A stretch of DNA of 4,254 nucleotides. Origin: a virus. Lineage: Duplodnaviria; Heunggongvirae; Uroviricota; Caudoviricetes. Position 1 is the stretch's first letter. Every line of letters begins with the position of its first letter. The DNA lies in the IMG/VR virus record IMGVR_UViG_2537561712_000020; one strand, given 5' to 3'. Made by a program: the position numbers and the translations under genes. Of this stretch, positions 1-3,403 are shown one piece after another. A model generated the notes under the pieces. The model saw only the letters and a list, made by a program, of their open reading frames with translations. It made no database searches and was not told the DNA's origin.

Positions 1-528
1 GAACGACGACTGTGACTGCACTGTGACCGCCACACTTTCAGTTTTAATTTCTTCCTGTGTTTCCGCTTCCCGGACTGGTAACGCAACACCTGCCGGCTGA
101 GGAAAGGCTTTACCATCGGTTTCCGTTACCGATGCAGCTTTCGGCTCTGCCGGTAAATTATCGCCCGGTATGCAGTAACGATATTTACCGTCCTGATTTA
201 CGCGAATCAGACGACCTTTGCTGACAGCCATCGCCAGTGATGAATTCGCCCGGCGGGAGGTAATCCCGAACATTAACGCCAGTTCGTCAGCCGACTGAGG
301 ACCATGCTGTTCAATCGCGTTAATCAGCATCTCTGCAGTGGTTTTTGGGGCCGCTTCAGTTGCCTCACTCGTCAGCCACCACATCGACCCCTTGTTATCA
401 GCTTCGCCACGACGCTTCAGCTTCCAGAGTTCGGTAACAGCATCGTCACGGCTGATTTCAAGACGGGCTGCAATCTCGTGCGACGAGGCTTTTTTCAGTG
501 CTTTCAGTGCGTCAAAAACGGTTTCCAT
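1..528 (-). CDS. Hypothetical protein with two winged-helix-like repeats, 5'-partial in window (start codon at 528-526, runs off the left edge; at least 176 codons)
   Basis: Not in the ORF track because it has no stop in the window. I checked every plus-strand triplet in this frame from 1 to 528 and found no TTA/CTA/TCA (minus-strand stops). ATG at 528-526 is preceded by GGGAGGAAAA (plus 536-545 reversed) about 5 nt upstream. Translation begins [52 protein letters not shown], then a second similar unit [44 protein letters not shown]. Sits directly downstream of the P-like gene, the position of ren in lambda. Function not recognised. Confidence 0.6.
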
Positions 529-562
529 TAAATTTTCCTCCCGGTAAAAATTACTTCTCAAC

Positions 563-1024
563 TCAGACAAAACCGGCCGCCTTCCGGCGCTCATATTCCT
601 GTTTCAGCAATTCAATTGGCGTTGGCCCTGGCGGGCGTTTGGGTGCTGCCAGTTGTCGCCGGACTGGCGGAACACTGAGGCCATTACCAACATGCTTTGC
701 CCATTTCGTCAGCTGCCTTTCCACAAGCCGTTTTAACTCCCCTTCGGTCATCTGGCGCTCAATCCCCTTTGAACGCATCTCGAGGCAAATGTGGTACAGC
801 ACCGGCTGTGGCCACGGGTATTTATCACTCCCGTCGTACCGCCAGGATTCATTCCTCCAGCGACGGTACTCCTCCATCACGGCATCCACCGTCAGGCCAA
901 ATGGATTTGCCCCGCTCTCCGAAATCAACGCCACAAACTCAGCCAGATCCGGAGGCCACGTTTCACCCGCCCGGCAGCGGTCCATGCACTGACGGCAGAC
1001 CTGCCGGATTTGCTGTTCAGTCAT
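563..1024 (-). CDS. Replication protein P-like (putative replicative-helicase loader); start codon uncertain
   Basis: ORF-track frame 563..1228. The C-terminal two-thirds resemble lambda P as I recall it (EQQIRQV, YPW motif, [17 protein letters not shown] near the C-terminus). The start is placed at ATG 1024-1022 because on the minus strand it forms ATGACTGA with the TGA stop (1019-1017) of the upstream initiator gene, a classic coupling arrangement. Alternative in-frame starts are ATG 1105-1103 (GGGA about 5 nt upstream) and ATG 1228-1226, which would overlap the upstream gene by 88 or 212 nt. Confidence 0.6.
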
Positions 1025-2057
1025 CGCGCCAATCTGAGCAATCCAGAGCTTCGAAGGTGCGGCCCCGTTCTTCTGGGTCCAGCGGTTCGAATACACCTCC
1101 CCCATGAGTTCCCACAGCTTCCAGGCCGTTTCCGTTGCTGATAAATCCGTTTTCACGTTCCCACTGTTCACGTGCTGCCCGAATTTCCTGAACTGCCCGT
1201 GATGCGGTGCCACCTGGTGCTGCTGCATGGTTTACCCCTTTGCTGACTGGTTTAACCTGCGCCCTGACGTGATTTACGTGACGGGCGAATTTCTGCTCCC
1301 ACTGAATCTGCGTAAACACTTTCCCCTCCGCTGCCCAGTAGTCCCGGAAGGCGGCAAGTTCAGCAGGTGTAAATTCTGTCTCCGGCAAAGCCATCCCCCA
1401 CAACGCAGCCCGTCGTCGAAAATCCCGTGACGGATACCAGCTATCGCTCATCGGGAATTTTCCGATGGGTTCGCTCAGGCCATACAGGAATACAGGGGGG
1501 GCTGCCTGTAACGACAAAACTTCCTGCTCACTGGTCGGAGCACTCTCGCGTGCGTTATGTGTGGGGTTTAGATCTTTGGGTTCCTTTGGGTTCCGTGATC
1601 CGTTTTTGGGTGTCTTTGATGGAAAATTTGGGTGTCTTTGGTTATTTTCCATGCAGCTAAGAGTTCTGTTTTTGGGTCTGTTTTGTGCTGAAACATAACC
1701 ATTTTCGGTACTGTTTTTATTAACAGCACCAATTTTACCCACCTTTAAAGACTCCCGTTTTTGGGTGTATTCAGGCTCGGCAACACTTTCTTCTACACCG
1801 ATAAGTCGGTACACCACAATTTGCTTTGTTCTGCCTTTTCTCTCACCGGTATCAACAATTAACCCAATCTCCATCAGGTGTCGTAAGCTGTCCTGCACAG
1901 TCTTTTTGTTCAGTTCCGTTACTTCTGCCAGTGCAGATACAGACGGGTATGCACACAAATCGGCACCGCACATATCAGCAAGCCAGGTCAATACTGACTT
2001 ACTGGATGAACTGCCGGTTTTCACCTTTTTAGCCCATCGTAGTGCATCGATACTCAT
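1017..2057 (-). CDS. Phage replication initiator / replisome organizer (lambda O analogue): N-terminal HTH DNA-binding domain, repeat-encoded Pro/Lys-rich linker, C-terminal DnaT-like region
   Basis: ORF-track frame 1017..2132. Start preferred at ATG 2057-2055 (MSIDALRWAKK...), preceded by AGGGGGG; the ATG at 2132 has no comparable signal. The N-terminus (KSVLTWLADMCGADLCAYPSVSALAEVTELNKKTVQDSLRHLMEIGLI) matches the pattern of replisome-organizer N-terminal HTH domains. The middle is low-complexity (PKNGSRNPKEPKDLNP) and is encoded by the repeat array. The C-terminal part (FTPAELAAFRDYWAAEGKVFTQIQWEQKFARHV) resembles DnaT-type C-terminal domains from memory. Overlaps the YdaT-like stop by 29 nt. 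Confidence 0.75.
   Translation of the reverse strand: MSIDALRWAKKVKTGSSSSKSVLTWLADMCGADLCAYPSVSALAEVTELNKKTVQDSLRHLMEIGLIVDTGERKGRTKQIVVYRLIGVEESVAEPEYTQKRESLKVGKIGAVNKNSTENGYVSAQNRPKNRTLSCMENNQRHPNFPSKTPKNGSRNPKEPKDLNPTHNARESAPTSEQEVLSLQAAPPVFLYGLSEPIGKFPMSDSWYPSRDFRRRAALWGMALPETEFTPAELAAFRDYWAAEGKVFTQIQWEQKFARHVNHVRAQVKPVSKGVNHAAAPGGTASRAVQEIRAAREQWERENGFISNGNGLEAVGTHGGGVFEPLDPEERGRTFEALDCSDWRDD
1564..1776. repeat. Phased direct-repeat (iteron-like) array plus AT-rich patch inside the initiator gene; candidate origin of replication
   Basis: Plus-strand TTTGGGT at starts 1575, 1585, 1605, 1627, 1671 and 1760, with spacings of 10, 20, 22, 44 and 89 bp. An exact 14-mer TTTGGGTGTCTTTG occurs at 1605-1618 and 1627-1640; related units are at 1669-1685 and 1757-1770. 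Positions 1690-1750 are about 68 percent AT. In lambda the origin lies inside gene O with iterons followed by an AT-rich segment. Confidence 0.6.
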
Positions 2058-2580
2058 ACGCCCCCCTGGCAGACATTTGTTTATCTGCAAAGTAATATTG
2101 GTATTGCTGACGATACGCGTGCTTGAAAGCAATAGCTTTTTCTATAAGCTCGTCAGTCTCACGTTCCACAACAACTGGATCCGCAAAAAGCAGCCCGGAC
2201 TCCACCACATCGCCATATTCTTTGTTTAACCCGGCGATCATGTACGTAATGCTTTTTCCGTCAGTAATTTCACAATACAATCTGAAATCGCTGATCCGGA
2301 TAGCCTCCATAATTGCCGGAATCAGCGCCGTGAATTTGTCACGCTTATCTCTGGTGTCGATAGCTTTCCAGCGTTCGAATATCTTCACCCGGTTAACGCC
2401 CAGCGCCCGTTGATCAACCTCGCCATCATTAAACGTGACGCGTTGAACATCGATGTTCGGGCGTTCTTTCAGAGCCCAGAATGCTTCCGTGATTAATATC
2501 GTCGCCTGCTCCTGTGTCATTCCTGGTCGGCATACCCAGGTATCCAGAGCCTCACAAACCTGTTCAGTGGTGATTTTCAT
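2029..2580 (-). CDS. YdaT-family protein (proposed CII-like regulator; earlier described as a prophage toxin)
   Basis: 182-codon ORF with ATG at 2580-2578. N-terminus MKITTEQVCEAL and the internal segment KFTALIPAIMEAI resemble Rac-prophage YdaT as I recall it. Lies immediately downstream of the Cro-like gene (17-nt overlap), the conserved ydaS-ydaT arrangement. Family assignment is from memory, not a search. Confidence 0.65.
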   Translation of the reverse strand: MKITTEQVCEALDTWVCRPGMTQEQATILITEAFWALKERPNIDVQRVTFNDGEVDQRALGVNRVKIFERWKAIDTRDKRDKFTALIPAIMEAIRISDFRLYCEITDGKSITYMIAGLNKEYGDVVESGLLFADPVVVERETDELIEKAIAFKHAYRQQYQYYFADKQMSARGAYEYRCTTMG

Positions 2581-2791
2581 TGTTCAACCGCCCCGCCCGC
2601 TTTGCCTTACGATATTCGTCATAAACTTTGGGGTCGTACTGAAGTTCCCCGCCGGATGCCTCTTGCAGGCGCATCGCGCGACCTTCAGGAACCAGTTCCC
2701 CCCATGCAGCAACGCTTGCCAGCCTAACTCCTGCGACATTGGCAAGCTTTGTTTTGCTGCCAAAAAACGCTATAGCATCAATTTTCAACAT
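2564..2791 (-). CDS. dicC: Cro-like HTH regulator of the DicC/YdaS family
   Basis: 75 aa; ATG at 2791-2789, AAGGG about 7 nt upstream. HTH-like segment GSKTKLANVAGVRLASVAAW. C-terminal half (LVPEGRAMRLQEASGGELQYDPKVYDEYRK...RLNNENH) matches my recollection of E. coli DicC. Divergent from the repressor gene across a 76-bp operator region. Confidence 0.8.
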   Translation of the reverse strand: MLKIDAIAFFGSKTKLANVAGVRLASVAAWGELVPEGRAMRLQEASGGELQYDPKVYDEYRKAKRAGRLNNENHH

Positions 2792-2867: not shown

Positions 2868-3275
2868 ATGAAAAACGAAACCTTCGGTGCTCGCCTCTTA
2901 TACAGGCGAAAAAAATTAAAACTGTCTCAGGCCGCATTAGGTAAGCTGGTCAAAGTGGCTCACGTAACAATTTCTCAATGGGAAAGAGATGAAACACAGC
3001 CAGCGGGGAAGAGATTATTCGCACTGAGCCAGGCGCTTCAGTGCTCGCCGACTTGGCTTCTTTTTGGAGATGAAGATAAGCAACCAGGCGAACCGATCCC
3101 AGATAATCAGCCAGTCAATCTGACAGAAGATCAAAAAGAGTTGCTTCAACTGTTCGACGCACTGCCTGAGTCAGAGCAAAAGGCTCTGTTGTCAGAGATG
3201 CGTGCTCGAGTTGAGAATTTCAACAAACTTTTTGAAGAACTACTCAAAGCTCGCAAAAGAAGCGCAAATAAATAA
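2868..3275 (+). CDS. dicA: DicA-like HTH (XRE-family) repressor; CI analogue with no S24 peptidase domain
   Basis: 135 aa. HTH segment LSQAALGKLVKVAHVTISQWERDE. Segments LFALSQALQCSPTWLLFGDEDKQP and ALPESEQKALLSEMRARVENFNKLFEELLKARKR match E. coli DicA as I remember it, including the 135-aa length. No Shine-Dalgarno sequence upstream of the ATG. Confidence 0.88.
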   Translation: MKNETFGARLLYRRKKLKLSQAALGKLVKVAHVTISQWERDETQPAGKRLFALSQALQCSPTWLLFGDEDKQPGEPIPDNQPVNLTEDQKELLQLFDALPESEQKALLSEMRARVENFNKLFEELLKARKRSANK

Positions 3276-3373
3276 CCCCCCTTTTTTTCGCAACTCTCTG
3301 TAATAAAAAGCACAAACTTTCAAATACTTGTGTTTTTTACATCAAGAAGCTTAGGTTTTTCTACACAAAAAGC

Positions 3374-3403
3374 TTGACCATAACTCTTAGGCTATTCTAA
3401 ATT
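3374..3403 (+). promoter_or_regulatory. Candidate rightward early promoter with embedded operator-like palindrome O3 (3386-3401)
   Basis: -35 TTGACC (3374-3379), 18-bp spacer, -10 TAAATT (3398-3403). O3 is CTTAG-GCTATT-CTAAA, the third copy of the TTAG-N6-CTAA core, sitting between the -35 and -10. Confidence 0.4.

Follow-up and report, generated by a model that had tools for sequence, protein, structure and literature searches.

A probable vegetative replication origin within the initiator gene of a lambdoid Escherichia coli prophage

A 4,254-nucleotide (nt) stretch of Caudoviricetes DNA (IMG/VR record IMGVR_UViG_2537561712_000020; the whole stretch is called the window here) carries a replication initiator gene with a cluster of short repeats in its central part, which raises the question of whether these repeats mark the place where replication starts. 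A first, sequence-only reading of the window proposed an iteron-containing origin on the logic of lambda, embedded in the initiator gene, and this proposal is strongly supported by comparison with homologous genes. Window positions 1556-1768, located in the inter-domain linker of the initiator, probably serve a lambdoid E. coli prophage as its origin of vegetative replication, arranged on the plan of lambda ori, and the repeats are very probably binding sites of the prophage's own initiator. The intragenic-origin design is well known; only this origin family appears to be undescribed.

The repeat array in the inter-domain linker

The heptamer TTTGGGT is present in six copies on the plus strand within 192 bp (1575-1766), with starts at 1575, 1585, 1605, 1627, 1671 and 1760, all of them where the sequence-only reading had placed them. 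In the whole window, counting both strands, it occurs seven times against 0.80 +/- 0.90 expected, and none of 200 dinucleotide-preserving shuffles reaches seven. The exact 14-mer TTTGGGTGTCTTTG, shared by positions 1605-1618 and 1627-1640, was also recovered. The six cores had been taken as one set of iterons, which holds for four of them, located within iterons of about 18 bp (I1-I4) that follow the general form ACACCC-AAAAAC-GGGAGT on the gene strand; the other two constitute a separate element, a tandem decamer past the last iteron. The complete array of four iterons, two decayed copies and the decamer pair is found at amino acids (aa) 97-161, in a linker rich in Pro, Lys and Asn between the helix-turn-helix (HTH) domain and the DnaT domain, in agreement with the earlier description. 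The initiator gene and its parts are, in gene order:

1017..2057, minus strand: initiator gene of 346 aa with an N-terminal winged-helix domain, the repeat-bearing linker and a C-terminal DnaT-type domain (open reading frame, Pfam and PHROG)
1788..2057, minus strand: N-terminal winged-helix DNA-binding domain (N-domain), aa 1-90, presumed reader of the iterons (AlphaFold2, Foldseek and polymorphism)
1751..1768, minus strand: I1, gene strand ACACCC-AAAAAC-GGGAGT, holding the core at 1760
1690..1750: AT-rich patch inside the array, candidate melting site, 67.2% AT versus 50.4% in the whole window
1724..1741, inverted relative to I2: degenerate iteron-like copy, gene strand TGGGTAAAATTGGTGCTG
1694..1711, minus strand: degenerate iteron copy, gene strand GTACCGAAAATGGTTATG
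1662..1679, minus strand: I2, gene strand AGACCC-AAAAAC-AGAACT, holding the core at 1671
1618..1635, minus strand: I3, gene strand ACACCC-AAATTT-TCCATC with a variant AAATT centre, holding the core at 1627
1596..1613, minus strand: I4, the last iteron, gene strand ACACCC-AAAAAC-GGATCA, holding the core at 1605
1574..1594, minus strand: tandem decamer GGAACCCAAA, 2.1 copies (Tandem Repeats Finder, period 10, 100% matches), holding the cores at 1575 and 1585
1556..1577, minus strand: conserved joint AAAGATCTAAACCCCACACATA, the downstream boundary of an exchangeable cassette (alignment)
1257..1457, minus strand: DnaT-type C-terminal domain (C-domain), aa 201-267, which travels with the loader gene (Pfam PF17948, E = 9e-17)

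I1 deviates from CCCAAAAACGGGAC by one mismatch, its arms are complementary at five of six positions, and its position (gene nt 293) is that of the first iteron in the homologous loci L003, L005, L007, L088 and L200. I2 and I4 each show two mismatches to the family consensus (see below) and arms complementary at three of six positions. I3, the right arm of which is lost, occupies the place of an inverted copy, GTACCGTTTTTCCC, in relatives, while I4 is homologous to their conserved terminal iteron ...AAAAACGGGACACGGAAC. The degenerate copy at 1724-1741 forms an inverted repeat with 1673-1690 (72% complementary), and its aligned counterpart in Edwardsiella phage EPP-1 is iteron 2, GACACCCAAAAACGGTGCTG; the one at 1694-1711 corresponds in position to GTACCGAAAACGGAACTG, located at gene nt 349 of L003, L004 and L006. 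Both fall in the AT-rich patch, at the positions of the relatives' iterons 2 and 3. The existence of this patch had been reported correctly, but its place is that of iterons 2-3 in close relatives, and two decayed copies lie within it. The decamer pair occupies the position of lambda's AT-rich unwinding tract. Helical phasing of the six cores, also proposed earlier, is not significant at a period of 10.5 bp (Rayleigh R = 0.61, p about 0.11), and a spacing of 89 bp corresponds to 8.5 turns.

On the gene strand, the core reads ACCCAAA and is translated in all three frames, giving T-Q-K, P-K and P-N/P-K. Over 72 sites of the family the frames are used 47, 16 and 9 times; at least two frames occur in 13 of 17 loci and all three in seven. 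Inverted copies in relatives encode unrelated peptides, e.g., VPFFP. Polymorphism gives a second view of the same question. A first scan of IMG/VR had returned 80 near-identical E. coli loci, of use for polymorphism and not for diversity; the sample used here consists of 52 distinct E. coli variants of the gene, or 53 aligned sequences with the window. The N-domain shows 17 synonymous to 2 non-synonymous polymorphisms in the coding frame and is clearly under purifying selection. For the C-domain the counts are 56:53 (out-of-frame controls 23:86 and 22:87), and for the linker they are 10:27, indistinguishable from its out-of-frame controls (7:30 and 9:28), which indicates that the linker peptide is barely constrained. 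I1, I3, I4 and the decamers together contain three variable columns in 74 nt, compared with 26 in 159 nt between the units; I1 has one variable column, I3 a single singleton polymorphism and I4 none, and the 52 variants are free of indels in the array. Thus, the repeats are conserved as DNA and not as peptide. A general deficit of polymorphism inside the units was also considered and is not convincing once I2 is included (9 of 92 versus 26 of 159 columns), and leaving out I2 is a post hoc choice.

Homologous initiators and exchange of the cassette

About twenty homologues of the N-domain, with identities from 75% down to about 35% and covering Enterobacteriaceae, Vibrio, Acinetobacter and Burkholderiales phages, were compared; the locus searches were made with two narrower alignments. 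Close homologues without repeats would speak against the origin, and every homologue examined contains a repeat array at the same place of the gene, with one core common to most of them. Arrays of CC(C/G)AAAACGG(G/A)AC are located at about gene nt 290-490 in homologues of 75% to 35% identity. The Scandinavium, Enterobacter and Kluyvera homologues (75%) and the Cupriavidus homologue (48%) have five to seven copies of the core, one of them inverted. The same core is found in most of the sequenced phages examined, namely Edwardsiella EPP-1 (71%), Burkholderia Bcep176, Vibrio H20 and E. coli phiV10, and more weakly in Acinetobacter AP22, which has a single exact copy. Ten further IMG/VR lineages carry repeat arrays, eight of them with this core. 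In Vibrio phage H20 (L091), the array consists of five perfect 24-bp tandem iterons, CCCGAAAACGGTACTTTGAATAGG, at gene nt 362-480, whereas the repeat found at this place of the gene in Moraxella phage Mcat8 (L093, nt 300-500), AAAGGGGGTACAATTTTGCA, is quite different. This contrast would point to a shift in site specificity among members of the family. An array with a different repeat sequence is likewise present in L241 and L243, and the differing repeats of these two loci and of Mcat8 would fit a co-evolution of the sites with the N-domain.

The clustering was quantified as the copy number of the most frequent 9-mer, with one mismatch allowed. It reaches at least five in 18 of 20 linker segments, while the maximum in 284 control segments of the same loci is two in 164, three in 105, four in 14 and five in a single segment. 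Alignment of 74 sites gives cAGTCCC(A/G)AAAACGG(G/A)ACtGT, and in the family consensus, CAGTCCC-AAAAAC-GGGACTG, the left arm CAGTCCC is the exact reverse complement of the right arm GGGACTG, with an A-tract between them. A profile search extends the family to 6742 clusters (50% identity) at E <= 1e-3, 1691 of them at E <= 1e-10; the peptides that the core specifies ([KE]NG, QKR and PKT) number 3.13 per 120 aa at residues 81-200 of 129 top representatives, compared with 0.15 elsewhere. A second element follows the array in 16 homologues, in which GAA[CT]C is repeated two to five times at 10-13 bp spacing from 8 nt past the last iteron (2.12 per 60 nt versus a background of 0.11).

The N-domain and the repeats behave as an exchangeable cassette of 520 bp, with mosaic joints at 2098 and 1577. 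At 2098, the DNA homology to PhiR42_1, mEp460 and HannyBb, which have other replication genes, comes to an end, and at 1577 the homology to the prophage Rac-SA53 ends, after 88.6% identity over window positions 14-1577 across the DnaT-type domain and the P-like gene. From aa 161 onward the initiator protein of Rac-SA53 shows 86% identity, and before this position it is unrelated, its N-domain being DUF1376. The conserved joint AAAGATCTAAACCCCACACATA, which includes GATC, is common to initiators the N-modules of which are unrelated (of HTH_36 type in the window and of DUF1376 type in Rac-SA53) and looks like a homologous-recombination joint for swapping replication modules. A natural domain swap is seen in EPP-1 (L088, 1501-2424), which has a 71% identical N-domain and the same ACACCCAAAAACGG iterons, near-identical in sequence (AAAGACACCCAAAAACGG), with a Phg_2220_C domain (lambda O type) in place of DnaT. 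The N-domain thus travels together with its sites, and the C-domain with the loader gene.

A proposed route of initiation and its alternatives

PHROG 1032, 'replication initiation protein', matches the initiator at E = 9e-91, and 'replication initiation O-like' PHROG families match its N-domain at 1e-10 to 1e-12. The AlphaFold2 model of aa 1-100 (pLDDT 77) has the order H-H-H-beta-beta, i.e., a three-helix, two-strand winged helix, and Foldseek places it nearest to generic winged-helix regulators and RepA_N plasmid initiators among solved folds. Sequence and fold searches of the PDB with the N-domain gave generic winged-helix proteins alone. Against HTH_36 (PF13730) the N-domain of the window scores 20.9 bits, under the cut-off of 25 bits, and homologues for which all 100 aa can be aligned reach 30-47 bits. 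The C-domain is matched by DnaT (PF17948) at 61 bits (cut-off 25 bits), and the Pfam search gave no Rep_3 match to the initiator.

By analogy with lambda (PMC7466680), initiation might proceed as follows. Upon derepression, leftward transcription from a promoter on the Cro/DicC side would lead to synthesis of the initiator. Its winged-helix N-domain, probably as dimers, would bind the iterons I1-I4, which are of the dyad type, and with lower affinity also the decayed copies located between I1 and I2. The A-tract centres and multiple bound dimers would then fold the DNA into an O-some-like complex, and the adjacent duplex would open either at the tandem GGAACC decamers and AGATCTAAA directly past I4 or at the internal AT-rich patch. 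Finally, the DnaT-type C-domain would recruit the lambda-P-like loader carrying host DnaB. Binding, dimer stoichiometry, melting site and origin activity are features that we infer from the computational analysis.

Several observations weigh against an active origin of this kind. Within the window only I1 keeps a good dyad symmetry, the right arms of I2-I4 having decayed and two further copies being degenerate, and I2 is the most polymorphic unit, with six variable columns. The prophage may be defective, so that this copy could be an inactive origin. Just past the last iteron there is no strongly AT-rich tract: positions 1556-1599 have 43-50% GC and z = 0.3-0.8 for duplex instability, whereas z is 3.5 at the same position of lambda. 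A 30-mer just past the last iteron ranks first or second in instability in lambda, EPP-1, L005, phiV10, Bcep176 and L007, but the least stable 30-mer of the initiator gene studied here is 1695-1724 (z = 2.2; rank six in the window). The AT-rich patch, which the sequence-only reading likened to the AT-rich region of lambda ori, is situated within the array, whereas lambda and most relatives have their least stable DNA past the last iteron. Phage_rep_O (PF04492) does not match the initiator at E <= 0.01, while lambda O itself scores 123 bits, and hhalign of the N-domain with lambda O yields a weak, collinear match (probability 9%, E = 0.0035); homology with lambda O is not claimed because this profile match is weak. 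In the non-subscription literature, searches by term and by sequence string found no paper on these repeats.

The state of the array leads to the alternative of a decaying, non-functional origin in a defective prophage, kept only for lying within a gene that is still open. The degenerate right arms of I2-I4 and the two decayed copies between I1 and I2 would agree with it, as would the frameshifted, split versions of the gene in some genomes and the allele of the window at gene nt 391 in I2: 45 of 53 sequences have a G there, which restores the family core AAAACGG, and the window has the minority allele that breaks it. However, 908 of the 5426 complete E. coli genomes contain the module at 1540-2060, in most cases with at least 99% identity, its N-domain is under purifying selection (17 synonymous to 2 non-synonymous), and I1, I3, I4 and the decamers are nearly invariant, with no array indels among the 52 variants, so that decay appears unlikely. 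The repeats could also bind the initiator or another protein for regulation, either as autoregulatory roadblocks or for copy control by handcuffing, with the true origin elsewhere. Plasmid iterons do double duty in copy control (review cited in PMC2647930), and a melting site could not be convincingly identified in the window, both of which count for such a role. It nevertheless seems quite improbable, as the window contains neither a second repeat cluster of comparable strength nor DnaA boxes, and as layout, gene position, orientation and the following repeat element match lambda ori, where this arrangement is the origin (PMC7466680).

Two further explanations deny the repeats any function as DNA. 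A linker that is rich in Pro, Lys, Asn and Gly and a predominance of one frame (xNGT, 47 of 72 family sites) are what would be expected if the DNA repeats were the by-product of a PKNG-like peptide repeat in a low-complexity linker. Yet a single nucleotide core is read in three frames (PKN/ENG, QKR and PKT), inverted copies yield peptides as different as VPFFP, the linker substitutions show no synonymous excess, and lambda's proven iterons behave alike, all of which makes this explanation very unlikely. A tandem repeat at the protein level is contradicted by the frame analysis, with three frames both in the window and in seven of 17 loci. The repeat region has a strong local AT and GC skew, which could favour a chance cluster of a short T/G-rich word in compositionally biased DNA, but the shuffles (0 of 200 reach the observed count) and the 9-mer copy numbers refute it, and position and sequence of the array are conserved in distant homologues; its probability is close to negligible.

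A more far-reaching proposal, which is possible but rather doubtful, is that the HTH_36-type initiators represent a very large, uncharted family of phage origins with one grammar and a common ancestor with lambda ori, in which the GGAACC repeats would be a sequence-specific opening element. The shared grammar would consist of direct dyads CAGTCCC-AAAAAC-GGGACTG, one to three inverted copies, and a terminal iteron fused to two to five GGAACC repeats one helical turn apart. Half-site contacts of the initiator would spread from the last iteron over the GGAACC repeats and open the DNA. The repeats would then be more than a passive AT-rich tract, and the mechanism would differ from that of lambda with its AT-rich unwinding tract.

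Prophage context and known systems

The window, which over 95% of its length is 97% identical to the PPompW prophages of Shiga-toxin-producing E. coli (STEC), comprises the region of a lambdoid E. coli prophage that is responsible for immunity and replication. Strains bearing the module include O157:H7, O145:H28, O111 and O103. The genes around the initiator are:

2868..3275, divergent from the minus-strand genes: DicA-like repressor gene
2564..2791, minus strand: Cro/DicC-like gene
2029..2580, minus strand: YdaT-like gene
563..1228, or 563..1024 with an alternative start at 1024, minus strand: lambda-P-like helicase loader gene (Pfam and PHROG)
after the loader gene in minus-strand order, minus strand: DUF1627/YdaW-like gene

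GenBank and RefSeq records have no origin feature at this place, and the initiator is named 'DnaT-like ssDNA-binding domain-containing protein' by the Prokaryotic Genome Annotation Pipeline (PGAP), which in some genomes annotates it as two coding sequences. The proteins P0002 and P0004 and the match H72 are 167-170 aa long and end in ...KPHT; these ends result from frameshifts just past the decamers, by which the initiator is divided into two proteins, one with the HTH and one with the DnaT domain. Many 'partial' database entries for the initiator also stop in the post-decamer region.

The loader is matched by Phage_lambda_P (PF06992) at 60 bits (cut-off 26 bits) and by PHROG 109, 'P-like helicase loader', over residues 19-220 (E = 1.6e-62). 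In its long reading, the gene overlaps the 3' end of the initiator gene by 212 nt (window 1017-1228, minus strand). The first ATG, at 1228, is preceded by AAGGGG 8 nt upstream, the overlap covers the last 70 initiator codons in another frame, and the P-family match extends into it. The same overlap, about 215 nt and open in both frames, exists in the Scandinavium homologue (L003, 3345-3559), and the ratio of synonymous to non-synonymous polymorphisms within the overlap is 20:32 when read in the frame of the initiator and 23:29 in that of P, compared with about 1:4 for non-coding frames. Public annotations take the shorter P, and in phiV10 the overlap is only 19 nt. The phiV10 proteins gp43 and gp44 are the same pair as in the window, a DnaT-domain initiator (PF17948) followed by a P-like protein (PF06992).

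Searches for other signals in the window gave little. Promoters and terminators were scanned for, with no candidate exceeding what shuffled sequence would give and none located within 1500-1800, neither an IHF core nor a DnaA box (within one mismatch) is present, and Rfam yielded no match at E <= 1, hence no known antisense RNA such as oop. Downstream of the gene for the DicA-like repressor, a tandem repeat (3332-3391) with 1.9 copies of a 23-bp unit, GTTTTTCTACACAAAAAGCTTAG, contains the hexamer CCTAAG/CTTAGG, which occurs twice more in the repressor/Cro intergenic region (2811-2842). These copies may be a second operator set; the enrichment is weak, with four copies versus 1.5 expected and seven of 200 shuffles reaching four.

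The module resides in about one in six complete E. coli genomes and is annotated there without an origin feature. Knowledge of the origin and its iterons would help to predict which co-resident prophages cross-activate each other or compete for initiators, and would offer a means to construct replicons of these prophages or to block them. The location of the origin would also explain the frequent assembly and gene-call breaks at this spot. Since the iteron core is found again in Vibrio, Acinetobacter, Burkholderia and Cupriavidus phages and is similar to that of lambda, a simple sequence rule could annotate thousands of phage origins. The known principle of lambda-type initiation is unchanged by these findings, and the surprise for a specialist is moderate to low.

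The closest counterpart is lambda ori itself, which is also situated in the linker of the initiator, between a DNA-binding N-domain and a loader-binding C-domain (PMC7466680), and is also followed by a P-type loader gene. The annotated lambda iterons, ATCCCTC-AAAAC-GAGGGA, are dyads of about 18 bp with a C-rich arm, an A-tract and a G-rich arm; they fall in three frames of O, and iteron 3 has the AAATT centre that is seen in I3. The sequence-only reading held the repeat to be unlike the lambda iteron, which is true for the sequence of the arms and not for the layout of C-rich arm, AAAAC, G-rich arm and dyad. As the arms and A-tract of the consensus match the plan of the lambda iteron, the unit has lambda's layout and differs only in its arms, ACACCC/GGGTGT-type in the window and ATCCCTC/GAGGGAT in lambda, and it is in the arms that binding specificity would be expected to lie. 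The lambda record annotates recombination joints just past the origin, and N-domain and origin are swapped as a unit, as in the window. In contrast to lambda, with its Phage_rep_O N-domain, Phg_2220_C C-domain and four sites in 85 bp, the window has an HTH_36-like N-domain, a DnaT-type C-domain and about six to eight sites in 175 bp at 22-44 bp spacing, and its relatives contain inverted copies. Past the last iteron, GGAACC decamers with about 47% GC take the place of lambda's strongly AT-rich tract. Two other lambdoid E. coli prophages, the Stx phages P27 and 933W, likewise have their origins inside the initiator gene, with six iterons in O and a linker lengthened by the extra iterons (PMC7466680), but they have true lambda O/P homologues and near-lambda iterons, whereas the initiator of the window belongs to a different domain family.

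Iteron plasmids such as pSC101, F, P1, RK2 and R6K resemble the window in their multiple repeats of about 17-22 bp and in a winged-helix initiator encoded beside the origin. Their iterons are asymmetric, monomer-bound and intergenic and are accompanied by DnaA boxes and AT-rich 13-mers, while the units of the window are intragenic and of the dyad type seen in the family consensus. The YdaU/YdaV module of the Rac prophage shares the DnaT-type C-domain (86% identical), the P-like gene and the joint TAAACCCCACACATA with the window. The N-module of YdaU in Rac-SA53, DUF1376, is unrelated to the N-domain of the window and lacks CCCAAAAACGG or comparable repeats, and this module was therefore used only to define the mosaic joint. 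The same protein pair as in the window, where the N-domain is HTH_36-like, is found in DopC/DopE of Cellvibrionales and Oceanospirillales: a protein with HTH_36 and DnaT_C domains and, next to it, one that resembles lambda P (Brezellec et al. 2017; PMC5509034). On the chromosome DopC has been domesticated, no longer acts as an initiator and was reported without iterons or origin activity (PMC5509034), a negative example that counts in favour of the origin reading. The sequence rule could also identify the phage ancestor of this domesticated pair, of which the window represents the phage form, with its array intact.

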